A stretch of 38,683 bases of DNA from a phage. The stretch lies in assembly GCA_033178465.1 (NCBI GenBank), contig GCA_033178465.1_4726.3. The stretch is one strand, 5' to 3'. Under the pieces are notes generated by a model that worked only from the letters and a program-made list of their open reading frames with translations, did not search any database and had not been told where the DNA came from. How positions within the stretch are numbered: the first letter of the stretch is position 1; each line of letters begins with the position of its first letter. Positions 5,814 to 38,594 of the stretch are shown here, piece after piece. The position numbers and the translations under genes are program-made.

Positions 5814-8045
5814 TTAGAAAAAACCGCCCGGACGGTATTGACCCATCGTCATCCACGCATTACGAGAAATATTCCGTTCATTCGAAGAGCGGCTTATTTG
5901 ACGATAAGTATTCGCTCGTTCCTCCCTTGCTTTCGTGATCATCGCATCAATAGAAACAGCCGCTGAATCTTCCCCACGTATTTTTCCTTTATACGTAAGA
6001 AGCTCTGCCTCCAATCGATCCAAGATAAGGCCGTTGGTTTCGGTCTTAAGCAACTCATAGATTTCAGCAACACGTTGACGAAGCTTCGCCTGCTGTTGGT
6101 TAAGATACGCTTCATACGGATCGATTTCACCCGTCACAGATGCCGGTAAACGACTCATGACTTTAAGTGGATCGATACCGTAATGGATCTGTTTCTTAGC
6201 ACGCTTGATGAACCACATCGCTAACATCCATGCGAACGTCATGTCATCGTGCATTCCATCCTGGTGGTCGACACGCCCATCTTTGATAACCAATCCAAGG
6301 ATCTCGGAACACAACATCTTATCACGTAATTGCCCGCGGGTTTCTACAATACCTTCCATCAAGATGTCGGAATACAACTCCATACGTTTGCGTGCATCCG
6401 TTGTGAAACCCAAATGCCGTTTACGTTGAGCGTACCAACTTTCATCACGCATGCTCAATGGTAATTTCAGGTCTTCGAACATCGCTGGATTATCAGCATG
6501 CCTGTCTACAATCGTGTTGTATACGCGTTTGAACACGTCGATGCCCGCTTGCCGCAAGAACTCTTCAATTGCGTCTAACAGCATGATTGCACTGCTTTTA
6601 CGTTCAGGAATCAACGTAACGTTCTTAAAACGCATCATGAAGTTGGCCATCCAACGAGCAAAAGAAAGCAGGCTCAGTTTATTAAAACGTCCCGTCGCGA
6701 CAACTTCTGCTGTTTCCACATCCACCATCACCAAACCGATAGCGTCACGACCGATCGCGTCACTGGTGTCTAAACCAGCAACCACCTTATTGTTCTGCAT
6801 GTATGTCTCGATTTGACCTCGAGGTATATACCAGTTAATGCAGTAGCCTTCAGGTGAGATCTCGATATGGTCGATTTCACGTTGTCCTGCCATGATCATC
6901 TCAACCATCTCAGCGGTTAACGGGCTTTCTGCTGAACCGTTGGTCCAAATGTTCATGTAGTCACGGTCTTTCTGAAGCTTATCACCTTCCGTTTCGTTCA
7001 TGGTTTTTGCTAACCATTCATCACTGAAGCCCAACTGAGCATGGTTCCATTGTGCCCCGATCCTGACGGTCGCTTTGCTGAGCTCGCACGGTACGTTGTT
7101 CAATACCGTCTGATGGAGATGCTTTTCATTACGGCAGTCAAAGAAACTTTCAGAGAACGGCGCTGAACGCATGAAAACTTCATAAGCCCATTTGCCTTCG
7201 CGTTTATCCAACTCACCTGCCGTTGTCGTATAGATGATACTTGTCAGGTCGCCGTTGCTTAATGCTTCATCGCGTGCCGCACCCATCGCACCGATACCAG
7301 CAGGAACAATGATTTCGATGTATTTCGTAAACGCGGTTTCGTCGCTATGGAATAGCGGGGTTGTTAGACCACGACCGATGTTCGTTGCTTGTTTCTTATC
7401 CGAACGTGGAATCTTTACCGACAGCTTGTTCTTGAAACGCGTGTAGGTCACGTTCTCTTTGTTCGATGAATCTCGACTATCCAGTGTCCAGAGATACGCA
7501 GGCAACAGATCGCGTATACTACGCACGTCTTCTACCGTTTTCGTACGGGCATCACCGTCTTTTGTTAACTGAATAACCTCGGTGTTTCGACTACGAACAT
7601 AGGTTAGATAACAAAACAATCCTAACATGGTCATGGATTTACCGGTCTGACGTATCTGTATCTGATACCAGTTCGTTCGGGTAAATATCCCCCAGAGCAT
7701 CGGAATGTTACCGCGGTTAGCACGGAATGAAATTTTGTTATCACCCGCTTTAGCCGGAACGCGCATCACTTCACGGAAGAAGTACCATGGATTAAGATAG
7801 CATTCCGCACTGATCATCTGAATCTGTTCTGACGTCAAATTCGGTGCGTGGGGATCAACACCAATCAATCTTGGGTTTAATAACGCCATGAAAAACGCAG
7901 AGTTCCGGACACCGAATTCACGACGATACAAGATCGCTAAATCACGCCAACTTGTGTTTGTTGTTTCCCAGTGTGGAACAGCCTGAGGAAAATAATCCCA
8001 ATCTTCCTCAAACAAGATGATTTTCTTCGGATCGACAATCGACAT
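5814..8045 (-). CDS. terL: terminase large subunit (743 aa)
   Basis: P-loop-like IRQTGKSMT near residue 125 (ATPase Walker A) and Asp-rich nuclease-type motifs in the C-terminal half (GLDTSDAIGRDAIGLVMVD, HQDGMHDDMTFAWMLA); size typical of TerL. ATG at 8043-8045 with GGAGGAG upstream. Confidence 0.75.
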   Translation of the reverse strand: MSIVDPKKIILFEEDWDYFPQAVPHWETTNTSWRDLAILYRREFGVRNSAFFMALLNPRLIGVDPHAPNLTSEQIQMISAECYLNPWYFFREVMRVPAKAGDNKISFRANRGNIPMLWGIFTRTNWYQIQIRQTGKSMTMLGLFCYLTYVRSRNTEVIQLTKDGDARTKTVEDVRSIRDLLPAYLWTLDSRDSSNKENVTYTRFKNKLSVKIPRSDKKQATNIGRGLTTPLFHSDETAFTKYIEIIVPAGIGAMGAARDEALSNGDLTSIIYTTTAGELDKREGKWAYEVFMRSAPFSESFFDCRNEKHLHQTVLNNVPCELSKATVRIGAQWNHAQLGFSDEWLAKTMNETEGDKLQKDRDYMNIWTNGSAESPLTAEMVEMIMAGQREIDHIEISPEGYCINWYIPRGQIETYMQNNKVVAGLDTSDAIGRDAIGLVMVDVETAEVVATGRFNKLSLLSFARWMANFMMRFKNVTLIPERKSSAIMLLDAIEEFLRQAGIDVFKRVYNTIVDRHADNPAMFEDLKLPLSMRDESWYAQRKRHLGFTTDARKRMELYSDILMEGIVETRGQLRDKMLCSEILGLVIKDGRVDHQDGMHDDMTFAWMLAMWFIKRAKKQIHYGIDPLKVMSRLPASVTGEIDPYEAYLNQQQAKLRQRVAEIYELLKTETNGLILDRLEAELLTYKGKIRGEDSAAVSIDAMITKAREERANTYRQISRSSNERNISRNAWMTMGQYRPGGFF

Positions 8046-15585: not shown

Positions 15586-16476
15586 ATGCGTCCTGATAAT
15601 ACCCTACTCGGTGAACAGGGTGTTGGTGCTCTTAGCAACGCGGCTATGGTCGATATTCGTGCAGGTGCCCAAAACGGGTACATCAGCAATATCGGTACGT
15701 ACGTTGCTAACGCCAACTACATTCCGAACCAAATGTTCTGCCTCCTGCTGGAGGCACCACGTGGTTTCAACTATCTACCTAACCCGGATGTCCAGATCGG
15801 TTATCTGAAGGCGCTGGTAGAAGAGGTTGCGCATTCGATTACCGGTCTGCAACGTGGACTGGAAGTTGAATTCGTTAGCGTCCCGGTTTCTGGTTCCGGT
15901 GAAATCCAGGAAGAAGTCTCTGACGTTAAACGTCCTCGCTCTAACCCGACTTTCGGGATCTATGAGAAAGAAGGTCGTTCCGTTAGTTACTTCCTGGAAC
16001 AATGGATCACGTATCTGTTGATGGATCCGGATGCCAAATATCCGATGTTGTCGTCTATCGTATCCACCGGTGGTCCAACCGACCTGCTGGCGGATTATCG
16101 TAGCGCAACCATGCTGTTCGTTGAGCCAGACCGTCAACACAAGAAAGTGGTTAACGCCTGGCTGTGCACGAACATGATGCCTCACGGTACCGGTGACTGG
16201 ACATCACGTCGTAACAAGAACGATGCGCCAAACGTGGTAGAATTGAGCATTCAGTTCACTGCGCTAACGCAGACCAACTACGGCGTGCGTGCTTTCGCAC
16301 AACGTCTGCTGGATAAGATGAACCTGCTCAAAGTGAACCCGGATTTCCGTCCGGCTTATCTGAGCGACATCGATCCTGCTGTGGCAGCGCAGAAGGTTGG
16401 CTATACCTTCGACTTTGATAACAACGATACCTTTGAGGTACCGAATACTTATCAAAACGTAACACCTCGCGTGTAA
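15586..16476 (+). CDS. putative tail tube protein (296 aa)
   Basis: Starts 15 nt after the sheath stop with SD GAGAGGAG; same codon bias; followed by a strong terminator. The function is inferred from context. Confidence 0.45.
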   Translation: MRPDNTLLGEQGVGALSNAAMVDIRAGAQNGYISNIGTYVANANYIPNQMFCLLLEAPRGFNYLPNPDVQIGYLKALVEEVAHSITGLQRGLEVEFVSVPVSGSGEIQEEVSDVKRPRSNPTFGIYEKEGRSVSYFLEQWITYLLMDPDAKYPMLSSIVSTGGPTDLLADYRSATMLFVEPDRQHKKVVNAWLCTNMMPHGTGDWTSRRNKNDAPNVVELSIQFTALTQTNYGVRAFAQRLLDKMNLLKVNPDFRPAYLSDIDPAVAAQKVGYTFDFDNNDTFEVPNTYQNVTPRV

Positions 16477-27845: not shown

Positions 27846-29492
27846 TTAGGCTCCACGAGGTCCCGTTAAGTTGCGTAGTAGGAACGCAACCGTATCGTAA
27901 CCAATATCGATGTTGAATTTATTTTTACCGCTTACCCAGAAAGCTCGCTTCTTGTGCGAGTTGGTAATTTCGTCAATGGCTTCCATGGAATAAAGAACGT
28001 TAACCGAGACTGTATCACCATCAAAGTCCCCACCAAGTCCGGCGAGGTATGGCGCAGGGACAATAGTCGTTTCTACGAACGAAGCATTAGGTAACCAGTC
28101 GGGGTATTCCCATGCGATAAATCGTTCATCCGTCATTGGTTCCCAGTTACTATCCAGTTCGGTTTTCGGTTTTGCTGCAACGGTCGTACGCGCGTAACAG
28201 GTTAACGGAATGACGGATTGCATACCCGATACCGGATAACGTGTTACCATCGCAGCCAGGTTATTCCAGTATTTATATCCTGCGATATAGATAAGCTCGG
28301 TGTACGTGATGGGGTGAACATCCGCACCAGGTTTGTTAAGCATCTCCGGGGGTAATTCACTCATACCACGGAATAACCGAAACGAATCGTTGTTCACATA
28401 GACAAGACAAAGATATCGTCCATTAACCATGATAGGTTCGTTACGCACACCGGGATCGCTTAAGGTGTTCAATAAACGTTCTATCCCGTCCCATGTTGTA
28501 AAGTCATCGATGGTGTCTGGATCAAGCGTGACGCGCTCACGTTCCATCGTTTCGGTATCAATAAGTTCAACTTCTGTAACATCACGGACAAATATTTCCT
28601 GCAAAATACCCGTACGTAACGCATGTTGCGTTACGGGGAGAGCAGCTTTACTCATCTGGTATAACCCTAACTGAACCGCGGTACAGGAAGGCTGGTTAGG
28701 CGACCCTAATACCTCCGTTGTGGGGTTAATTGCCGAAATAACGTTACGGGTTGAGTTCCAAACACGACGTGAGCCGAACTTCCCTTGGAAGATCCCTTTC
28801 TTACCTTGGAACATATCCAACAACAAAGCGTAGATATCGTTAAATGTTCTCTGTAAGCTCCAGCGTTGACCGTCGTAAACGGGATCGGAATAATCTTTTA
28901 ATCCATCAGGGACGGTGTTGGAAATTGCCAGGAAACGACGATACAACTCTGTGATTTCTTGCTCGCTTTCATACCCGCCTTCTTTTACTTCTATTTCACG
29001 TAAGCCCGCAGGTAAAACCAGTAAGTGACGGGTCATCGCTTTGAACATGTTCTCTTCGACAACTTTAATTCGTAGCTCTCGTTGAGCTGAACCCGTTGAA
29101 ACGAACTTGATATCAGCGACGTGTTGTGCAAAGAACCCGTATCCTGTTTGTCCTGTTAACGCATCGGACGCAACGAAGTCGCGTTGTTCAGGATCCCAAC
29201 GCGCGTACGCCTTTCCTGACATGATATCGCCATAGAGGTGTTTTAATCGAATGAGGCGGTCGTAAATGACAGGATGCAGGATTTCAACCTTGCATTCAAT
29301 CACCGCAAATCGACGGTCTCGATCTTCACTACCCGCACTACCAAAGATGGTGTAAGAATAGAAACCATCATCGTGGAAATTACCGGTGCTTGGGTCACGA
29401 ATGCTCATGCTCGTGATCTTGGGGAGAAAACGTAACTGCTGTTTATCGAGGTGTAAAATACTAATATTAAACGGCTCTCTGACTTTAGCCAT
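27846..29492 (-). CDS. multisubunit RNA polymerase beta-prime N-terminal fragment (about 548 aa)
   Basis: Contains LAGLGGDFDGDTVSVNVLY (codons at about 28014..28028), matching the beta-prime Mg-binding NADFDGD loop; the N-terminus DGFYSYTIFGS...RRFAVIECKVEILHPV parallels beta-prime GLFCARIFGP...ERMGHIELASPTAHIWF, and GKFGSRRVWNSTRNVISA parallels GKRVDYSGRSVI. The track start (29534) has no SD; the ATG at 29490-29492 (MAKVREPF...) is preceded by AGAGGAG at 7-nt spacing. Confidence 0.75.
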   Translation of the reverse strand: MAKVREPFNISILHLDKQQLRFLPKITSMSIRDPSTGNFHDDGFYSYTIFGSAGSEDRDRRFAVIECKVEILHPVIYDRLIRLKHLYGDIMSGKAYARWDPEQRDFVASDALTGQTGYGFFAQHVADIKFVSTGSAQRELRIKVVEENMFKAMTRHLLVLPAGLREIEVKEGGYESEQEITELYRRFLAISNTVPDGLKDYSDPVYDGQRWSLQRTFNDIYALLLDMFQGKKGIFQGKFGSRRVWNSTRNVISAINPTTEVLGSPNQPSCTAVQLGLYQMSKAALPVTQHALRTGILQEIFVRDVTEVELIDTETMERERVTLDPDTIDDFTTWDGIERLLNTLSDPGVRNEPIMVNGRYLCLVYVNNDSFRLFRGMSELPPEMLNKPGADVHPITYTELIYIAGYKYWNNLAAMVTRYPVSGMQSVIPLTCYARTTVAAKPKTELDSNWEPMTDERFIAWEYPDWLPNASFVETTIVPAPYLAGLGGDFDGDTVSVNVLYSMEAIDEITNSHKKRAFWVSGKNKFNIDIGYDTVAFLLRNLTGPRGA

Positions 29493-29737
29493 GGAGACAC
29501 TCCTCTTTACCACCACCGGCTGCGGCGGTATCATCTGAACACACGAGAGACGTAATGGGTGATGGCGTCACCCATCGCTTCCTTGCCTGATGCCAGGAAG
29601 TTATTAGGTTACGTACCTGCCTGATTTTATCAAGCGGGCGATGTGTGAAGTTACGCTTCAACATTATCAATGCCGAAGGTAAGCTTCGTGCATCACGTTC
29701 CAACGTAACATGGGAACGTATCGAACTGGAGGTATAC

Positions 29738-32700
29738 ATGGTAGATAAAACCCGTGTTGAGGGTGATGATAATTGGGATAACTGGGATGAAGACTTCTCC
29801 CTGGATCTCGATTTTAACGAACCCAAAGACGATCGTAAACCGATAACACGCTTTGCGGTAGGAGCGGTTAAAGGTGCTGCTGAAGATCTTACTTCCTACG
29901 AAAGAATGAAGGAGATCGCCAGAAACGCATTGCCTAAGGGCTACAGCGACGGTATGGATCTTATCGATTCCGCCGTCGGATCCACGAAGGAACTATACAA
30001 TGAAGCCGTTCGTGACGTTCTTCCTAAGGTCCAAAGCTCAAAACGGTTAGCTGCACAACTAACCAAGAAATACCGTGCGAGCATGCCCGATTTCTCGAAG
30101 AAAATTCTCGAGCAATGGGAGCGAGAAGCCAAGGAAGAAGACGAACGTAAACAAGCTGAAGAAGCCCTTCGTCAACGCATGGCGAGCGCGGGGGACGATG
30201 AGATTGCCCGCAAGGTTGCCGAGGCATTAGGCGAATCAGCAAACCAAAGCGCGGATCAGTTTGCTGAACAGCAAGCGAAAGAGAGTATCCGTGACGATAT
30301 CGCTGACAAACGGTACGCTGTAACCAACAAACAAATGAGTGCGATGCAAGAAGGCGTCGCCAAGATGGTTGGTTTCAACAATGAATTCGCTGCACGCTAC
30401 ATGCGTAAAAGCCTGGAACTGAAATATCGTTCCTTAGCGATTCAACGTGCAAGTTTTGATCAGCATAAAAAGTTAGCCGAAGTCTATATCGGTTTATTAC
30501 AAAACATCCAGAAGAATACGGCTTTACCTGATGCAGCTAAAGCGAAGATGTCGGAAGAATTCCGTCGTAGTGCATACCAACGTTTCTTTGGTAATGCGTT
30601 AGATGCGATGGGTTCTTTCGAGAACCGTTTCTTTGCCGATGTTAAGAAGAACCTCGCCACCAACGCATTAGGTGCTTTAAAAGGCGTCGTGTCTGGCGCA
30701 AACGATGCGTTATACGGTTTAAACGAAGCACGTGACTCGATGTCCGTGATGGACGGGATGGGGTCAGAAGGCGATATTAAGGAAATGCAAGGAAAGATGT
30801 TGGGTCAGTTCATTGGCTCAACTGTCGCACCATGGATGGCTAATAAAGGCAGGATGGCGTTACGTGATTTAGCAAAACGTCACCCCAATGCTAAATTCGC
30901 TAGCGCGTTAAAAGCCGTGGATCAAGGTGGTGAGGCTGCCGCATACACAACGCGTAATCTCGGTAAACTGCTCCAGGAAGATATTCGTAAGAACGAATTC
31001 AATCTTAGCGATCCGTTTTACAAGCAATTGTTACGCGGCGCAGGGCGTTGGGCGTTCAACATGGACAGCGGACGTAACTTCCGTGTGATGAACGACACCG
31101 CTGAAACACTGGCAGAGCAAACGTCTTTCGACGGTTTAACTTACCGCAGTATCAATGAAGTTATTCCTGGTTTTCTTGCACGCATTCTGAAAAGCAGTGA
31201 AGGTATCCGCACCGGAAACAGCGATCCTGACTACGAGGTCTATGACGGCATCAGCGGACAATTCGTGTCTCAGCGCACGCGTGAACAAAGCGTCAATGAC
31301 ACGCTGTTTAACAAACGTACATTTGGTTATTACGCCAGCCGTTTCAACGAGGTTATCTCGGTCATCGATCCTGATAAGCAATTATCGGAAAAAGCCAGGA
31401 AGGCACTGGCTAAACAGTTGGCGCGAGATAGCGACGCGAACATCGCATTCGACCCGGTTCGTTTTACGGATGAAAGCAACTTCGATCGTAGCATTGACCG
31501 TGACGCTATTAAGGAACTTTCCACGTACTTTCGTGACCGTTACGGTATTCGTGACGATATCAACGATAAGGGGGAACGTCATCAGGTCATTGGAAACCGC
31601 GGGCAATATTACACGGAACGTAACCGAGCCGATCTTCGCTACGGAAATCTGAAATCGTTACAACCGGATATCCAGCGTAACCTTAACCTACTGAAACGCA
31701 CTGGTGACGTCCAATATCTGGAACGTATTGGTATTGTAACGAGAAATAGCGACGGAAGTTACTCGGTTAATCACGATCGGTATTTCTCTGAAATCGATCG
31801 ATACATCGACCGACCGGAGTACGCTGAACGTAATGATGTTAATACGCGATTAACCGCTCAGGAAACAAGAGCGCTGGCGTTGGGTTATCGTGACGCAAAA
31901 CCATCAGTTGATGACGTCCAAAATGCGGGTCTACCGAACATCGGTCGTAAGGCTGTTGGAACAGTAACCGTTGATGAAAACATCGGCTACGATAAATGGT
32001 GGAACGACACAGGTGTTATCACTACATCGCTTGAAGAACAGAATCGAGCATGGCAAGAACTCTATCTCGAAGCGTTGTCCGAAGCATCCGAACAACGTGT
32101 TGAAATGCTTGCGTTGCTGAAAGCCATTTCTGAGAAAGACTGGTCTAATAACGTTTCGCTGGATGGTGAAGATGTACCTGAAGGTGCAGCACCCATTTCA
32201 TTTATTGACCGCGCCAAACAAAAACTCGGCGCACGCAACCTCTTTAAAGGCGGTCGTAATCTCTTCTGGAAAGGAATTAAAAATACCGCACGGTTGGGTG
32301 TTAAAGGTGCGCGCTGGGGTGCAGAACGTACATTAGGTAGTTTGGTAAATTCTGGCCGACGCATTATCAATTTCAACCGCTTCGTGTTCGGCGCGTTATC
32401 CAAGGTTGATCAGGTTCCGTTCGACATTTACGTTAAAGGGGAATCCCAACCACGCATATTGGCTGCCAAACTTCGTCAAGGGTTATACTTCGATGAAGCG
32501 ACAGGAAAAGCCGTAAAACGGATGAAGGATATCAAAGGCCCACTCGTTGATGCAGATGGAAACATCGTAATCAGCGACGAGGATATCGAGAAAGGGTTGG
32601 TCACTCGCGCTGGTCGTGCCTTTGAGAATTCAGGACTTAAGGCGTGGGCACGTGAAGGTCTTAATGGAATAACGACGGTATTAAGTCTGCCACGGATGTT

Positions 32701-35700
32701 AAAACGCGGTGCGGTCGAGATCTACAAACAGCTTGACAAAACACCCGACGTTTACGTCAAGGGAGAATCAACGCCTCGTCTGTTGTCCATGGTGTTAGCA
32801 GCGGGTGGGTATTTCCGTCGCTCTGACGGACAAGTCATCAAAAATCTTGAAGACGTCGATGGTGATGTTGTTGATGCACAAGGTAACGTCGTGCTTACGC
32901 TTGCCGACATGCAGAAAGGACTTGTCGATAAATACGGTAAAGCGATTCGTCGCTTAAAAGAAAAGCTCATCAACTTCGGTGTAAAAGCTTTTACGTTACC
33001 GTTAACGCTGCTACGTAAGACAAAGGACATCCTTAAAGCCCTTCCAGGTAAAACCGTTAACGGCCTACGACGGATGGGATTAAATTTCCAATCACCTGAC
33101 GCATTACTGGTGGGAACAACGTCGAGCATGGTAGATCGGCTCGATGCGATTTACCAGCTTCTTGACCAGCGTATGCCGGGTGGTGATAAGGATTACCGCG
33201 ATTGGAATGGCGATGGTGTTCGAGAAGGATCGTTGGAAGACCTGAAACGTAAACGTGAAGCCAAGGAAAACGGTAAGGATGACACCGGCAAAGATTCCAA
33301 TAAAGGAGAAGAAAAGGAGAAGAAACGAGGGTTACTCGGAAGCCTTTTCGATATGCTCGGCGATACCGCATTAGGTAAACGCCTCATGGCGAGTCCGCTT
33401 GGAAAAATTCTGGGTGGTCTTGGGGCGGTGTTAAGCGGCGGAGCATCGTTAACCGGATTGTTAGGCAAGGGTCTCATTAGTGGAACCGGCGCGCTGGTCA
33501 AGGGAGGACTAAGTGCGGCAGGATGGTTAGGACGCGGTGCGTTAATGGCGGGCGGGGCCGCATTGAACGCTGTTGGTGGGTTATCGGGATTAGGTGCATT
33601 CCTTATCTCACCTGTTGGGCTTGCTATTGCAGGCGGTGCATTGGCTGCTTATGCTGGATGGAAGATCTATCAGCATTTCGCCGAGAAGCCTGACCCGATG
33701 CAGAAGCTCCGTCTTATTGCATACGGTGCAAAAGGGGACGATAAAGACTTCAATAAGAAGCTGCTTGCGACAGAAACATACCTCACCGACCATGTGGTTA
33801 TGACCGGGGATACCATCGGATTCGATCCGAAAGCGGATTCTGAAAAGATTCTCGAAATCTGGGAATTGTCCCTGGAAGATTCCGACCGAATGAACGAATG
33901 GAAACGCTGGTATCTGCATCGTTTTATTCCTGTTTTCGCTCGCGCGTACAAACTCTGGAAAGAGCATATGCCGGACGAGAAGAAATACATGGAAATGGAT
34001 AAATATCCGAACGGTGAGAACAAAGTGAAATGGTCGGAAGCGTTTATCTGGCCTTCCGATAGTCCTGATGGTCCGTATTACGTCGAAGCTAACCCGTTGG
34101 GTTCTTCTGGTGCGACGCGTTATATTGCTGGTCAAGACGTCAAAACCTTGATGCTGAAACAACTCGAAGCCATCAAGAAAGAGTACCAGAATCAGATCAA
34201 ACAATACTCTCATGATGAGGCTATTGCTGATTGGTCACGGATGTCTGACACACAACGTAAATCCGTTGCCCCTAACGCATTACGTGGTCAGAAAGCGTCG
34301 TTACGTTTTAACGATAAACGTTACAACAGCGCTGGCGCTAAAGGACGACAGAAGCTTGACGCGACCGCGGTTATTGAAAGCGTAGACCGCCGTGGCAGGA
34401 AATGGGTTGCCGGTGGATACATCGATGAACTCACCAGTCTCCGTGTTCGCGCGTACGGTATCAAGGTTCCGTTGTTAAGCCAGATAAAAGTGCTGATGGA
34501 ACTTGAAGACGCTGTAGAACCTGGCGTTGTCGCTGAAGGTAAAGGTGTTAAATACGGTGGCGATCTTGTCGCGCTCTACAAGAAATTCGCGACGAAGTTC
34601 GGAAGAGACGTTAACAGCAAGCATGATCAGGATATCTGGTTTGCTTGGATGAACAACCGTTTCCTGCCCGTCTTTTTAACCTATTACCAACAAGTTAGCG
34701 ACATGGGCGGTCAAGGTCTTCTGTCCGACGTGGTACAGAACCTGAAAGACAGCCAACGCTGGGAGATCGGTGAAGCACTTGTCGCAACGCAATACCGTGA
34801 TGAGAAAGGTACACTGCAGCCCGTATGGTCCTGGAATAGTTGTGGTTTCTCCGGTACTGAAGCTAACACCACCAGCAGTTCAACAAAGAGCCAACTCGAT
34901 CTGTTAAAAGAATATGCGGATAAAGAGAAGGTTCGTGAGAAGAACGCGGAAGCATCGCAAGAGGATACCGAGAAATTATCGAAGATCCAAGAGCTGATGA
35001 TGAAGCAGGCTGGGTACGAGAAGAAGGACGGTGTCTGGCAGAAGAAATCTCGCATTACCGGTGGGATGAGTAACTCCGAAGCGAATTACAACCCCAATGG
35101 GAATAAGGTCGGTGCAAGCAGCTTTACTGCTTCGGCTACTTCCAATGCGGGATTAGGGTCAACCGGCGATCTTACTGGATTGCCTAACATGGGCTTACAG
35201 AAACCTGCAATGGGACCAGGTCCTGAAGCTGGACGTCGTACGCTTGTTAAATCCGCTGTAAAACGCGGTATTACCGATCCAATGGAAATGGCGATGTTCC
35301 TTGCGAACATCGAACATGAATCGGGGAACTACACTCACGTACGTGAGGGGAACTATAAGACACCAGAGCGTCTTAAACAGGTCTTCCCTTACAAATTCCG
35401 TGATGTGCAGGATGCCGCACAGACGATCAGCATGGGGCCGGAAGCGGTATTCGAACGTGTGTATGGTAATCGTAAAGATCTCGGAAACACACAGAAAGGA
35501 GACGGGGCGAAGTATTTAGGACGTGGCTTCATTCAGGTTACCGGTAAAGCTAACTACGCTCGTCTGTCTAAGACCTTGAATAAGGATCTTGTCAGCGATC
35601 CGACATACCTGGAAACGCCGGAAGGTGCAGCGGAAGGTAGTGTCGCATGGTGGCTCAACCGAGGTAACGTATTACGCGATCCCGCAAAACGGGGTGATGT

Positions 35701-36403
35701 ACGCCAAGTTCGTTATCTGGTTAACGGCGGCTATAACGGATTACGTGATGTTGAACAACGTTCAGCTTATTGGATTCAGGCGGCTAAGAACGGCACCCTG
35801 AAGAAAATGATGGACGAGTTATCAGGGTCAACATCCGACGATCAAGCTGAAGGACCAACCACTGCCGAACAGGTGAAGAACGAAGCGGCACAAGAGGCAA
35901 ACGGAACACCTGCTGTAAGCAACGATCCGCAAGCCCCAGTATCTTCTACTACCCCTGAAGCTAAACCGTCTGCGGCTGCCGGGACGGCCCCAGCACCTGG
36001 AGAAGCATCGCCAACGCCTGGAAGTTTCGAAACAGCAAAAGCCGCGGCAGGACAACCGACATCAACTCCAGCACCTAGCGATTTGCCGTCAAACCCGGGC
36101 GCAAATCGAGGGATATCGGTTCCGAATACGCCTGCACAGGTTGCGCAGTCTGCAACACAAACGTCGGCTGCAAGTGAGAACTTCTACGGTAGCGCAGGTG
36201 AAATTCTCCGACAGCAGCTGACCACACAGCAGAACATCGAGAAGAACACCGGTAGAACGAATGAACTTATTTCGGAATTAATCCAAGCCGTTAAGGGTTC
36301 TTCTATCGGTAAGGGTTCTGCAAGTCCTTCTCAACAACAGGCGATGTCGCTACCTAATCGTCCGCAAGGAATCTCTCCAACACGGACAAGGTACGCACAG
36401 TAG
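29738..36403 (+). CDS. giant multidomain virion-type protein with GH19 muralytic domain (2221 aa)
   Basis: The track ORF begins at GTG 29645; the ATG at 29738 follows GGAGG at 5-nt spacing. Contains a coiled-coil-like N-terminal third, a tandem ~108-aa repeat (32423..33060), a glycine-zipper hydrophobic segment (about 33325..33670), a GH19/lysozyme-like domain (about 35230..35800; FLANIEHESG, YLGRGFIQVTGKANY, LVNGGYNG) and a Pro/Ala/Ser/Thr-rich C-terminal tail. Confidence 0.7.
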   Translation: MVDKTRVEGDDNWDNWDEDFSLDLDFNEPKDDRKPITRFAVGAVKGAAEDLTSYERMKEIARNALPKGYSDGMDLIDSAVGSTKELYNEAVRDVLPKVQSSKRLAAQLTKKYRASMPDFSKKILEQWEREAKEEDERKQAEEALRQRMASAGDDEIARKVAEALGESANQSADQFAEQQAKESIRDDIADKRYAVTNKQMSAMQEGVAKMVGFNNEFAARYMRKSLELKYRSLAIQRASFDQHKKLAEVYIGLLQNIQKNTALPDAAKAKMSEEFRRSAYQRFFGNALDAMGSFENRFFADVKKNLATNALGALKGVVSGANDALYGLNEARDSMSVMDGMGSEGDIKEMQGKMLGQFIGSTVAPWMANKGRMALRDLAKRHPNAKFASALKAVDQGGEAAAYTTRNLGKLLQEDIRKNEFNLSDPFYKQLLRGAGRWAFNMDSGRNFRVMNDTAETLAEQTSFDGLTYRSINEVIPGFLARILKSSEGIRTGNSDPDYEVYDGISGQFVSQRTREQSVNDTLFNKRTFGYYASRFNEVISVIDPDKQLSEKARKALAKQLARDSDANIAFDPVRFTDESNFDRSIDRDAIKELSTYFRDRYGIRDDINDKGERHQVIGNRGQYYTERNRADLRYGNLKSLQPDIQRNLNLLKRTGDVQYLERIGIVTRNSDGSYSVNHDRYFSEIDRYIDRPEYAERNDVNTRLTAQETRALALGYRDAKPSVDDVQNAGLPNIGRKAVGTVTVDENIGYDKWWNDTGVITTSLEEQNRAWQELYLEALSEASEQRVEMLALLKAISEKDWSNNVSLDGEDVPEGAAPISFIDRAKQKLGARNLFKGGRNLFWKGIKNTARLGVKGARWGAERTLGSLVNSGRRIINFNRFVFGALSKVDQVPFDIYVKGESQPRILAAKLRQGLYFDEATGKAVKRMKDIKGPLVDADGNIVISDEDIEKGLVTRAGRAFENSGLKAWAREGLNGITTVLSLPRMLKRGAVEIYKQLDKTPDVYVKGESTPRLLSMVLAAGGYFRRSDGQVIKNLEDVDGDVVDAQGNVVLTLADMQKGLVDKYGKAIRRLKEKLINFGVKAFTLPLTLLRKTKDILKALPGKTVNGLRRMGLNFQSPDALLVGTTSSMVDRLDAIYQLLDQRMPGGDKDYRDWNGDGVREGSLEDLKRKREAKENGKDDTGKDSNKGEEKEKKRGLLGSLFDMLGDTALGKRLMASPLGKILGGLGAVLSGGASLTGLLGKGLISGTGALVKGGLSAAGWLGRGALMAGGAALNAVGGLSGLGAFLISPVGLAIAGGALAAYAGWKIYQHFAEKPDPMQKLRLIAYGAKGDDKDFNKKLLATETYLTDHVVMTGDTIGFDPKADSEKILEIWELSLEDSDRMNEWKRWYLHRFIPVFARAYKLWKEHMPDEKKYMEMDKYPNGENKVKWSEAFIWPSDSPDGPYYVEANPLGSSGATRYIAGQDVKTLMLKQLEAIKKEYQNQIKQYSHDEAIADWSRMSDTQRKSVAPNALRGQKASLRFNDKRYNSAGAKGRQKLDATAVIESVDRRGRKWVAGGYIDELTSLRVRAYGIKVPLLSQIKVLMELEDAVEPGVVAEGKGVKYGGDLVALYKKFATKFGRDVNSKHDQDIWFAWMNNRFLPVFLTYYQQVSDMGGQGLLSDVVQNLKDSQRWEIGEALVATQYRDEKGTLQPVWSWNSCGFSGTEANTTSSSTKSQLDLLKEYADKEKVREKNAEASQEDTEKLSKIQELMMKQAGYEKKDGVWQKKSRITGGMSNSEANYNPNGNKVGASSFTASATSNAGLGSTGDLTGLPNMGLQKPAMGPGPEAGRRTLVKSAVKRGITDPMEMAMFLANIEHESGNYTHVREGNYKTPERLKQVFPYKFRDVQDAAQTISMGPEAVFERVYGNRKDLGNTQKGDGAKYLGRGFIQVTGKANYARLSKTLNKDLVSDPTYLETPEGAAEGSVAWWLNRGNVLRDPAKRGDVRQVRYLVNGGYNGLRDVEQRSAYWIQAAKNGTLKKMMDELSGSTSDDQAEGPTTAEQVKNEAAQEANGTPAVSNDPQAPVSSTTPEAKPSAAAGTAPAPGEASPTPGSFETAKAAAGQPTSTPAPSDLPSNPGANRGISVPNTPAQVAQSATQTSAASENFYGSAGEILRQQLTTQQNIEKNTGRTNELISELIQAVKGSSIGKGSASPSQQQAMSLPNRPQGISPTRTRYAQ
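32423..33060 (+). repeat. intragenic tandem duplication (2 x ~108 codons) inside the giant gene
   Basis: Protein modules DIYVKGESQPRILAAKLRQGLYFDEATGKAVKRMKDIKGPLVDADGNIVISDEDIEKGLV... and DVYVKGESTPRLLSMVLAAGGYFRRSDGQVIKNLEDVDGDVVDAQGNVVLTLADMQKGLV... align along their length; the nucleotide copies start at 32423 and 32747. Confidence 0.5.
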
Positions 36404-36452: not shown

Positions 36453-38594
36453 ATGGGTATTCTTGTTCAAAACGCCCTAATCACCAAACAGGCATTTTTA
36501 TTACCGGGCGATAGCAGCACGCTTAGTGCCGACATGATTAAAGCGAGACATACACCGTATTCCTACGATAACGTCGATGATACCACCTTAGGTGGGAACT
36601 GGGTACTTAACCCACCACCGCAATATACCAAATTTGCCGACATCAAAGAACGCCGACGTGCGGTTATGCCAGGATCAACGGGCATGGGTCGAGGCTATAG
36701 TGAAAGCATTAACAGCTTTAAAGAGGTCGTTACGTTACGATTCGGTAAACCTCGCTTTACAGGCGCAAGTATCTTCTTTACTGATTTCTACGATGCGGAT
36801 GTTGCCGTAACGGTTAAAACCGGTCGCGATCCCGGTATTCTTTATTACGCAGCCAAAGCGTATACCACCGTTCTTTCTTACCTCACACCTCTACCTTACC
36901 TGTATATGGTTGGACGTATCGGTCGATATTTCCTGGGTAAGCCTACCAGTCAATATTACTATCAAGTACCAACCATGCATGTGTATTGGGCGTCTTTCCA
37001 GACGCTGGTAAACCAAACAGCGATAAACATGGGTCTTATCGCCGGTGCTGGTAAAGATAAAGGCTACGTGGAAGAAGGGGGTACCGTACTCCACCAATAT
37101 TCAATCGGTGGTCAGAACGTTGAAGAATTCATCAACTACGCCTCTAAGACGCTACCGGGGATTTATAAGAAAGGTGGTGGGATCGATATCTATCAGATCG
37201 CAACACGTCGTCAGCGTATACAGAACGCATGGGTACGTCGTATTCAATCCATGATGGAAAACGACTACTCGTCTTACGAGGAGTTCTGGAACGATCTTGA
37301 TAAACGACTTGATAGCGGAGCATTTCCATCGGATGTAACCGGCCGTACGTTAACGCAGTATCTCGCCGATACGCAGAAGTCTGCTGTTTACAGTGCGACA
37401 GCTGGTGATAATAAACAAACGATGGACGACCTTTTATTTGGAAGAGCCTCGTACACCAATAAAGATGCCGATGCTAACTTCAATGTCTCAGCAGCTACCT
37501 CCGACGGCGGTACGTCAACACAGAGTCAGGGTACAACAGCCAATGTCGGTAATTCAACGTCAGGGACAACGCAGGCTTCAACAGCAGCATCAACGGCTGG
37601 AGGCGCGAACGTACAGAGCAAAGGAATCGGTCAAACGAACGCAGCCGAAGAAGCTACGTTTCTTGATCTGATGGATGCTGAACTGGCCGACGGCGCTCAG
37701 TTTATCAGTTTTCGAGTCGATTCTGTCACCAGCGTAACCGAAACGTTTTCAAACAGCGCTTCAGAAAGTTCAATCGCACAGACGATGAATAGCCGCGCGC
37801 AAGCGAACATCGAACGTCGTTTCACCCTTTCCGGTGGTAATACAGGTTGGGCTGTACTAGACGAAGCCATCAAAGCCGGTTCCGATCTCGTTAATGGTGC
37901 TATTTCCGGGATGGGTCTGGATGGTATTTTTGGTGCCTTCATGGGTTCCGGCTTCGCTGACATTCCGAAATTCTATTCTGGATCATCGGTAAGTCTACCG
38001 CGTGCGGATCTGACGATGGAATTACGTTCCTGGAGTGGGGACCGCTGGTCGATCTTTACGAACCTCATGGTACCTCTTTTAGCTATCCTTGCAGGCGGTT
38101 TGCCTCAGGCTACCGGTAAATCGTCCTACGGGATGCCGTTCATGTGTGAGTGTTATATTCCCGGTAAAGTCCAGATTAAAATGGGTCTTATCGATAACAT
38201 CACTGTGACGCGTCATGTTGGAAACGTGCCGTCAACACGTGAGCGGTTACCGTTAGGCATCGATGTCAGCTTCAGTGTTTATGACCTGTCGTCCATCGTC
38301 GCCATGCCGATCACAACGACGGCCGCATCGATCGCAAAACTGGATCCTCGTGGCTTCTTAAGCGATCTTCTTGCTGACGATACCCCACTCAACAACTATC
38401 TTGCTGTATTATCGGCATTGACACTTACGGAACAAGTTTACATGATTCCTGATTTAAGTCGTCGCATGCATAAAACCATGGCTGATATCGACAGTTTCTG
38501 GAGCAAAGGTAATTTTGCTAGCTGGTTGTCTGACACCATGCCTGGCAGGATAGCATCAGGGCTGTTATGGAAACGTACGGAACGACCGTTCTGA
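36453..38594 (+). CDS. hypothetical protein, probable virion/tail-associated protein (713 aa)
   Basis: Long ORF with ATG at 36453 after GAGGAA; follows the giant protein gene on the same strand; contains a Ser/Thr/Gly-rich low-complexity segment (TSDGGTSTQSQGTTANVGNSTSGTTQASTAASTAGG) and a C-terminal hydrophobic segment (LMVPLLAILAGGL). No enzymatic motif recognised. Confidence 0.6.
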   Translation: MGILVQNALITKQAFLLPGDSSTLSADMIKARHTPYSYDNVDDTTLGGNWVLNPPPQYTKFADIKERRRAVMPGSTGMGRGYSESINSFKEVVTLRFGKPRFTGASIFFTDFYDADVAVTVKTGRDPGILYYAAKAYTTVLSYLTPLPYLYMVGRIGRYFLGKPTSQYYYQVPTMHVYWASFQTLVNQTAINMGLIAGAGKDKGYVEEGGTVLHQYSIGGQNVEEFINYASKTLPGIYKKGGGIDIYQIATRRQRIQNAWVRRIQSMMENDYSSYEEFWNDLDKRLDSGAFPSDVTGRTLTQYLADTQKSAVYSATAGDNKQTMDDLLFGRASYTNKDADANFNVSAATSDGGTSTQSQGTTANVGNSTSGTTQASTAASTAGGANVQSKGIGQTNAAEEATFLDLMDAELADGAQFISFRVDSVTSVTETFSNSASESSIAQTMNSRAQANIERRFTLSGGNTGWAVLDEAIKAGSDLVNGAISGMGLDGIFGAFMGSGFADIPKFYSGSSVSLPRADLTMELRSWSGDRWSIFTNLMVPLLAILAGGLPQATGKSSYGMPFMCECYIPGKVQIKMGLIDNITVTRHVGNVPSTRERLPLGIDVSFSVYDLSSIVAMPITTTAASIAKLDPRGFLSDLLADDTPLNNYLAVLSALTLTEQVYMIPDLSRRMHKTMADIDSFWSKGNFASWLSDTMPGRIASGLLWKRTERPF

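Follow-up and report, generated by a model that had tools for sequence, protein, structure and literature searches.

An endolysin-type GH19 domain in the giant gp181-type virion protein of a Goslar-like jumbo phage, most likely a tape-measure-borne entry lysin

The stretch of phage DNA analyzed here (contig GCA_033178465.1_4726.3 of NCBI GenBank assembly GCA_033178465.1) is 38,683 nucleotides long, is called the window throughout, and comes from a Goslar-like chimallivirus, that is, a nucleus-forming jumbo phage of Escherichia coli. On its plus strand lies a giant open reading frame (ORF), whose product matched PHROG 3201 with an E-value of 1e-295 and is probably a tail protein of the virion, namely a tape measure bearing a lytic module. 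An earlier note, made from the letters of the DNA, had read a catalytic signature of glycoside hydrolase family 19 (GH19) in four short strings of the translation between positions 35230 and 35800. All four strings were found in one frame of the giant ORF, and this span agreed with the limits of the GH19 domain as delimited here (Table 1).

The similarity to GH19 proteins was evident at the level of whole-domain comparisons. The 211-aa query segment (residues 1852–2062) matched PHROG 181, labeled 'endolysin', with an E-value of 8e-54, and phmmer comparison with six solved GH19 endolysin-type proteins gave E-values from 5e-24 to 1e-17. When a profile of 63 homologues was compared with solved GH19 endolysin-type structures, the E-values reached 2e-69, while the same profile matched plant and bacterial GH19 chitinases with E-values between 1e-16 and 1e-8, the plant enzymes being at about 1e-16. 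A chance match of the motifs was ruled out by these E-values.

Two glutamates had been proposed as catalytic candidates, and in an alignment with GH19 endolysins both of them superimposed on the catalytic positions. Within the 'IEHES' string, E1892 is conserved, whereas E1890 does not occupy a conserved position. The spacing between E1892 and E1901 is 9 residues, as in loopless GH19 enzymes and endolysins, compared to 22 residues in plant chitinases. Together with Y1940 and T1966, these two residues were invariant in 63 of 63 homologues (query positions E41, E50, Y89, and T115), and Q1964, which aligns with Q128 of the SPN1S endolysin, was Gln in 59 of the 63. The string GRGFIQVT fits the GH19 motif G-R-G-x-x-Q-x-[ST]. 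In a pairwise alignment, all nine active-site residues of the endolysin PaGH19Lys (H50, E51, E60, Y103, Q127, T129, I187, N188, and R197) had counterparts, eight of them identical and one an Ile-to-Val change; the pairing of R197 with R2039 was obtained only across a 3-residue gap, and the multiple alignment placed V2036 there instead. As a check on the numbering, H50, E51, and E60 fitted structure 9EOI directly, and an offset for a 15-residue tag yielded E49, E58, and T130 for structure 4OK7.

The general-acid role that the earlier note gave to the first Glu agrees with the GH19 Engineering Database (GH19ED), in which the first Glu is the proton donor and the second Glu is the base (PMC8547705). 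Equivalence to the residues of plant chitinases is transitive, through the endolysin structures and a published table: Table 1 of GH19ED equates endolysin E49/E58/T130 with chitinase E67/E89/S120, while its running text has E69/E87 (PMC8547705). According to the PaGH19Lys paper, this enzyme is a muramidase, the E60Q substitution abolishes its activity at 1 nM, an E51V allele is non-lytic, and the acid and base labels are swapped in one passage (PMC12329726). The assignment of acid and base to the two Glu residues is a convention and is not settled for endolysins.

An AlphaFold2 model was generated from the 63-sequence alignment, with a mean predicted local distance difference test score (pLDDT) of 95.6 and a predicted template modeling score (pTM) of 0.89. 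The predicted model had the bilobal, alpha-helical, lysozyme-like fold of GH19. When it was compared with known structures by Foldseek, the TM-scores were 0.79 for TfcB, 0.73 for PaGH19Lys, and 0.69 for SPN1S.

GH19ED lists 26 core positions common to chitinases and endolysins (PMC8547705), which were mapped here through SPN1S. At 24 of the 26 positions, the residue of the giant protein was either the major one or one of the minor ones listed; the two deviations were N1888 and V2036. The residues I33, R109, and G118, specific to the endolysin (ELYS) subfamily, were present as I1876, R1943, and G1954, while ELYS position 173 (L/Y) was ambiguous in the alignment, with R2011 in the column and L2010 adjacent to it. 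Cys was absent from the whole domain, so the chitinase pair C97/C105 was missing as well. With the ELYS markers present and this pair absent, the domain belongs to the endolysin (muramidase) branch of GH19, with peptidoglycan rather than chitin as its predicted substrate. The GH19 identity read in the earlier note thus stood, with the refinement that the branch is that of the endolysins and not that of the chitinases.

The closest known counterpart of the giant protein is gp204 (YP_009820915.1 / QBO64023.1), from vB_EcoM_Goslar, a phage of Escherichia, and is the product of the same gene: both genes are 6759 nt long, align without gaps with 96.9% nucleotide identity, and differ by 163 synonymous and 35 non-synonymous codons, the latter corresponding to 35 aa differences. 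The GH19 region was 99.1% identical over 211 aa, with 14 synonymous and 2 non-synonymous codon changes; the two amino acid differences, T1856M and A1866T, are located at or before the N-terminal domain edge, and the catalytic residues are all identical. The Nei–Gojobori omega against Goslar was 0.023 for residues 1866–2050, the lowest of five segments, and 0.059 for the whole gene, which is supportive but not decisive, as it rests on one pairwise comparison with few changes. Further, orthologous modules in other jumbo phages, 41–45% identical to this one, retain the Glu, Glu, and Thr. A decayed domain was ruled out by conservation together with omega, in line with what the earlier note had supposed, and its suggestion of an active enzyme is supported by homology, fold, and the conservation of the catalytic residues, by which the domain is probably active.

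Table 1. Features of the giant gene, its GH19 domain, and other genes in the window (residue numbers from the listed GTG codon)
Feature	Position (nt)	Strand	Residues	Basis or counterpart
Giant ORF, 2252 aa from the listed GTG	29645..36403	+		ORF list; ortholog of Goslar gp204 and phiKZ gp181
GH19 endolysin-type glycosidase domain	35240..35794	+	~1866–2050	
FLANIEHESG	35297–35326	+	1885–1894	
VREGNY	35339–35356	+	1899–1904	
YLGRGFIQVTGKANY	35513–35557	+	1957–1971	
LVNGGYNG	35717–35740	+	2025–2032	
E1892 codon, predicted catalytic proton donor ('HES' Glu)	35318..35320	+	1892	SPN1S E49, PaGH19Lys E51
E1901 codon, predicted catalytic base ('VREGNY' Glu)	35345..35347	+	1901	SPN1S E58, PaGH19Lys E60
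T1966 codon, predicted water-coordinating residue, in GRGFIQVTG	35540..35542	+	1966	SPN1S T130, PaGH19Lys T129
R2023 codon, ELYS position 183, apparent replacement for Arg196	35711..35713	+	2023	Covariation, 63-sequence alignment
V2036 codon, in place of Arg196, conserved in the +1 subsite of GH19 endolysins	35750..35752	+	2036	SPN1S-mapped alignment
Gly-rich hydrophobic segment	33317..33664	+	~1225–1340	Kyte–Doolittle and sequence inspection
Low-complexity A/P/S/T-rich linker	35831..36214	+	~2063–2190	Composition
Short C-terminal helix and basic tail	36215..36400	+		Last 110 aa of four orthologs compared by eye
Downstream gene, 713 aa, Goslar gp203 homologue	36453..38594	+		By position, corresponds to phiKZ gp182 (spacer ring)
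Virion RNA polymerase subunit gene, 562 aa, divergent	27846..29534	−		Synteny marker
Virion structural protein, probably tail tube	15586–16476			

The GH19 domain is followed by a linker of 128 residues (A 26, P 17, S 15, and T 14) and then by a short helix and a basic tail. This C-terminal architecture, though not its sequence, appears to recur in the orthologs of phages PA7, RAY, and RSL2, whatever lytic module they carry. Upstream of the domain, Kyte–Doolittle windows of 19 residues exceeded 1.4 at residues 1255–1273 and 1303–1338; the surrounding segment is rich in Gly, Ala, and Leu, contains two or three transmembrane-like stretches, and is preceded on its N-terminal side by a highly charged K/E-rich run. 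Judged by its composition, this segment is a candidate membrane-interacting region and resembles the parts of ejection and tape-measure proteins that are active on membranes.

Two side observations concern the N-terminal and scaffold parts of the gene. The GTG at 29645, which is also the annotated start in Goslar, is without a clear ribosome-binding site, while an in-frame ATG at 29738 (codon 32) has GGAGG upstream with a 5-nt spacer, and homology to the orthologs starts at residues 64–67 in the giant ORF compared to residues 38–46 in the orthologs. The true start is probably the ATG at 29738, which would give a protein of 2221 aa and shift all residue numbers by 31. In the scaffold part, there was a tandem pair of ~85-aa repeats at residues 920–1001 (nt 32402–32647) and 1029–1116 (nt 32729–32992), with the consensus PxDxYVKGESxPRxL...DGxxVxDAxGNxV...KGLV and a Smith–Waterman score of 181. 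The pair was recovered by Smith–Waterman alignment only and was not reported by blastp self-comparison. If the giant protein is a ruler, this repeat could be its length-setting unit.

Evidence that the protein is part of the virion comes from Goslar. Mass spectrometry of purified Goslar virions gave 34 peptides of gp204, 24.5% coverage, about 3.4–8 copies, and the label 'Tail protein' (10.64898/2026.04.21.720040, Table S4), and the same method gave 2.3–5.4 copies for gp203, which is present in six copies (10.64898/2026.04.21.720040). One of the peptides, AAAGQPTSTPAPSDLPSNPGANR, belongs to the linker that follows the GH19 domain (10.64898/2026.04.21.720040).

The public labels of this protein family are at variance with each other. 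Goslar gp204 is named 'tail fiber protein' or 'putative chitinase' and assigned to COG3179, and an identical 161-aa fragment carries the NCBI name 'glycoside hydrolase family 19 protein'; public annotation already records the membership in GH19, and finding it here is ordinary and would not surprise a specialist. The RefSeq name 'tail fiber protein' for gp204, RAY gp162, and RSL2 ORF039 was apparently propagated from the label of PHROG 3201. GenBank submitters chose either 'putative chitinase' or the name 'lysozyme domain protein', and there are records of the RSL2 group that read 'soluble lytic murein transglycosylase' despite a GH19 domain. All these names, from 'tail fiber' and 'putative chitinase' to 'lysozyme domain protein' and the transglycosylase label, look inaccurate, and with 'putative chitinase' a peptidoglycan hydrolase has most likely been misnamed.

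Beyond Goslar, a tblastn search with residues 1–1200 detected homologues in 280 records of phiKZ-like jumbo phages. By blastp, residues 66–724 and 918–1761 were collinear with the 2237-aa homologue of PA7 (E-values of 6e-45 and 1e-37), and collinearity was also found with RAY gp162 and RSL2 ORF039. The collinearity with PA7 ended at residue 1761, ahead of the lytic module. In the PA7 homologue of gp181, Pfam SLT was located at residues 1885–1978 of 2237, and at the equivalent place in the window, RAY, and RSL2 there was a GH19 domain; the C-terminal lytic domain of SLT type, a trait of phiKZ, was not found in the giant protein. As the modules occupy the same relative place with different folds and the PA7 homology ends before the module, the scaffold is conserved but its lytic cassette can be exchanged, being of GH19 type in Goslar, RAY, and RSL2 and of SLT type in phiKZ.

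The neighborhood is conserved as well. In the window, Goslar, PA7, RAY, and RSL2, the virion RNA polymerase (vRNAP) gene is divergent from the giant gene, which is followed by a tube-initiator/spacer gene whose product has ~630–710 aa across the phages compared. In the Goslar cryo-electron microscopy preprint, gp203 is the tail tube initiator complex, present in six copies. A Pfam search of the flanking 562-aa and 713-aa proteins gave no match.

For phiKZ, the lytic domain of gp181 is reported to be highly muralytic and gp181 to be present in the virion (PMC5380687), and orf181 tolerated no transposon insertion, was classed as essential, and was called the likely tape measure (PMC12676376). 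The endolysin for lysis of phiKZ is the product of a separate gene, gp144.

Taken together, we consider it most likely, with a probability of roughly 0.8, that residues ~1866–2050 form an intact GH19 domain of the endolysin branch in a gp181-type virion protein and that this protein is a tape-measure-borne entry lysin; the homology, the predicted fold, the conserved catalytic residues, the purifying selection, the synteny, and the module swap are findings made here, and activity, bond specificity, tape-measure role, place in the tube lumen, and timing are inferred. By analogy with its relatives, the domain is predicted to cleave the MurNAc-beta-1,4-GlcNAc bond of peptidoglycan through single-displacement inverting hydrolysis, in which E1892 would donate the proton, E1901 would act as the base that activates water, and T1966 would hold this water. 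Subsites −2 to +1 would be lined by H1891, Y1940, Q1964, N1970, V2026/N2027, and R2023, the last being an Arg moved from its usual position. The giant protein would most likely be the tape measure within the lumen of the tail tube, a location reached by elimination, as both structural atlases build the spike, tip, hub, and initiator rings from other proteins and leave gp181 and gp204 unmodelled. The few copies in Goslar virions, the place beside the tube-initiator gene, and the proposal made for phiKZ also speak for this role. The tube lumen of phiKZ is ~68 Å wide and is estimated to fit the folded ~21-kDa domain. Upon sheath contraction, the giant protein would be expelled through the tube, and the GH19 module would hydrolyze glycan strands locally, allowing the tube or DNA conduit to reach the inner membrane, which the hydrophobic segment may engage.

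Several results weigh against this interpretation. The match to Pfam PF00182 Glyco_hydro_19 was 18.3 bits for the whole protein and 23.6 bits for the domain alone, below the cut-off of 25.5, and it was confined to the GRGxIQ core (profile positions ~102–141); the RAY and RSL2 modules cleared this cut-off with 47.1 and 42.9 bits, respectively. Such a cut-off is an operational criterion and does not define the family. An NCBIfam search gave no match. At core position 45, endolysins carry Q (88%) or T (9%), but the residue here is N1888, and core position 196, which belongs to the +1 subsite, is V2036, where endolysins have R in 89% (frequencies from PMC8547705). In the part of the Goslar mass spectrometry supplement searched, no tryptic peptide from either the N-terminal part or the GH19 domain was found, a negative that is uninformative. 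The tail tube of Goslar has 46 rings of 39.2 Å (~180 nm) and that of phiKZ 43 rings of 37.7 Å (~162 nm), so the former is ~11% longer, whereas the giant proteins of the Goslar and phiKZ types are collinear and differ by less than 1% in length, which misfits a simple whole-length ruler. Finally, gp204, gp181, and a tape measure are unmentioned in the main texts of the Goslar preprint and the phiKZ atlas (Nat Commun 2026), and no direct report of a phiKZ tape measure placed in a structure came up in a literature search.

Judged by covariation, V2036 at position 196 is apparently compensated by R2023, which may reach into the cleft. In the 63-sequence alignment, 48 sequences had T183/R196 and 12 had R183 with a residue other than Arg at 196 (V, C, F, or I), and there was not a single sequence with Arg at both positions or at neither. 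The RSL2 ortholog shows the same R183/non-R196 arrangement as the window, together with N at position 45, and RAY has the canonical T183/R196. In GH19ED, R is found at position 183 in 9.6% and at position 196 in 89% (PMC8547705), frequencies that fit a minority subclass with a relocated arginine. This pattern suggests that the substrate-binding Arg has moved to a neighboring helix in a minority of the GH19 endolysin-type homologues, and the variant (12 of 63 close homologues) may form a subclass in which the +1 subsite is built in another way.

The same two deviations could also be taken as signs of a domain whose catalysis is lost or weakened and which only binds peptidoglycan or plugs the structure, as do chitinase-like lectins of GH19; in addition to the changes of Arg196 to Val and Gln45 to Asn, the closest structure by TM-score, TfcB, has neither Gln nor Thr in its GRGxxQxT motif. 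However, both catalytic Glu residues, the Thr, Tyr106, Gln128, Asn134, and Asn187 are kept here, while the catalytic Glu is reported to be lost in GH19 proteins without activity (PMC8547705). Further, the loss of Arg196 is paired with the gain of Arg183 in 12 of 12 homologues and the omega of the domain is the lowest in the gene, and we regard a dead domain as unlikely. That the domain might be a true chitinase, acting on chitin or chitin-like glycans as the Goslar label implies, is scarcely credible. GH19 was originally defined on chitinases, the weak Pfam match is named 'Chitinase class I', and Asn at ELYS position 45 (N1888) is frequent in chitinases (N 25%, CHIT position 63) and rare in endolysins, but the E. 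coli host is not known to contain chitin. The chitinase reading was rejected on the subfamily markers, since I33, R109, and G118 are those of the endolysins and the disulphide Cys pair of the chitinases is absent; moreover, among solved enzymes the closest is PaGH19Lys, which is a muramidase and whose paper has a section with a heading that begins 'PaGH19Lys Does Not Hydrolyze' (PMC12329726).

Other possibilities concern the stage and place of action. As the closest characterized relatives are endolysins and the 38.7-kb window contains no other lysin gene, the domain could serve as the lysis endolysin at the end of infection, for example, via proteolytic release or internal initiation. We find this very unlikely: the domain is embedded in a protein of 2252 aa whose Goslar counterpart occurs in purified virions in few copies, phiKZ gp181 is a structural lysin and an essential tail gene while phiKZ lysis uses the separate gp144 cassette, and, by eye, no obvious Shine–Dalgarno sequence preceded any internal Met codon on the upstream side of the domain. 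The linker peptide from Goslar virions lies C-terminal to the domain and shows that this region is packaged. In an older proposal, given with reference to Briers 2008 in a review table (PMC5380687), gp181 is a 'needle-like cell-puncturing device, putative trimer', and ~3–8 copies would be compatible with a trimer; GH19 would then act in a spike component like the lysozyme domain of T4 gp5. Yet the spike, tip, hub, and initiator-spacer rings are formed by gp13, gp48, gp62, and gp203 in Goslar and by gp164, gp163.1, gp101, gp88, and gp182 in phiKZ, and the atlas authors accounted for all hub/spike and inner baseplate density. With the spike fully assigned to other proteins, a spike protein was rejected and is a highly improbable identity for the giant product. 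A further, unlikely possibility is that the giant protein is more than a ruler bearing a lysin and forms the ejected trans-envelope conduit of chimalliviruses, in which case residues ~1225–1340 would insert in the inner membrane and help to seed the EPI vesicle, and the GH19 or SLT module would clear the wall around this site. The EPI vesicle is the membrane-bound vesicle of early infection that receives the injected DNA of chimalliviruses.

A tape-measure-borne entry lysin thus remains the preferred reading, and it would correct the annotation of this family to a peptidoglycan-cutting (muramidase-type) entry lysin within a gp181-type tail protein. What is added here is modest, namely the residue-level confirmation, the assignment to endolysins and not to chitinases, the covariation of the relocated Arg, and an explicit account of the SLT/GH19 cassette swap. 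On its own, the ~21-kDa domain makes a reasonable enzyme candidate for use on Gram-negative cell walls, and the GH19 domain could help to address the location and role of gp181 and gp204.

Apart from the genes discussed above, the window also holds genes for the tail sheath, head protease, terminase, and vRNAP subunits. A 2051-bp insertion of Goslar (locus L001, 8332–10382) is absent from the window at ~28020–28026, within the minus-strand ORF 27846–29534. This insertion matched the group I intron family (Rfam RF00028, 67.7 bits) and carries the HNH/NUMOD1 homing-endonuclease ORF gp206, and it splits a vRNAP subunit gene, which is an uninterrupted 562-aa ORF in the window and is also unsplit in PA7, RAY, and RSL2. 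The short 3ʹ exon of the split Goslar gene appears to be unannotated. A title cited in PMC12676376 links vRNAP intron endonucleases to competition between co-infecting chimalliviruses. In addition, the minus-strand ORF at 5814–8045 (743 aa) matched the terminase large-subunit profiles PHROG 2 and 32359 over its first ~210 residues only, and the remainder had no match at the threshold used; this remainder could reflect ordinary divergence of the nuclease half of jumbo-phage terminases or an inserted element.

Among known systems, phiKZ gp181 (2237 aa, compared through the equally long PA7 homologue) is similar in length to the giant protein and shares its neighborhood, orientation, module position, low-complexity linker, and C-terminal helix. 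It differs in the lytic module, which has an SLT-type transglycosylase/lysozyme fold instead of GH19, and in the predicted chemistry, which would be that of a single-Glu lytic transglycosylase or lysozyme in phiKZ compared to a two-Glu inverting hydrolase here. Outside Goslar, the closest GH19 relatives are RAY gp162 and the Ea35-70 group, RSL2 ORF039, the Burkholderia FLC phages, Proteus phage 10, and Salmonella SA002; the jumbo-phage relatives are 41–45% identical in the domain and about 24–30% elsewhere. In Erwinia phage RAY and Ralstonia phage RSL2, the GH19 module was confirmed to lie in this giant protein too, with its relative position and the synteny unchanged.

The solved endolysins PaGH19Lys (9EOI), SPN1S (4OK7), and KTN6 gp46 (8P8E) are free lysis enzymes of ~200 aa, whereas the domain here is an internal module, with Val for Arg196, Arg at 183, and Asn for Gln45. 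Muralytic domains in virion tail proteins are known from the tape measure Tmp of mycobacteriophage TM4 and from the spike lysozyme gp5 of T4. Pb2 of T5 is likewise a tape-measure protein that brings a muralytic domain to the periplasm at entry (PMC5380687), and it combines hydrophobic segments with a lytic module, as does the giant protein. No sequence relationship of the giant protein to these systems is expected. The catalytic folds of these proteins are different from the GH19 fold, being peptidase-type in Pb2, an Rpf-like motif in TM4, and a GH24 lysozyme in T4 gp5, and the tail that carries the GH19 module here is contractile.

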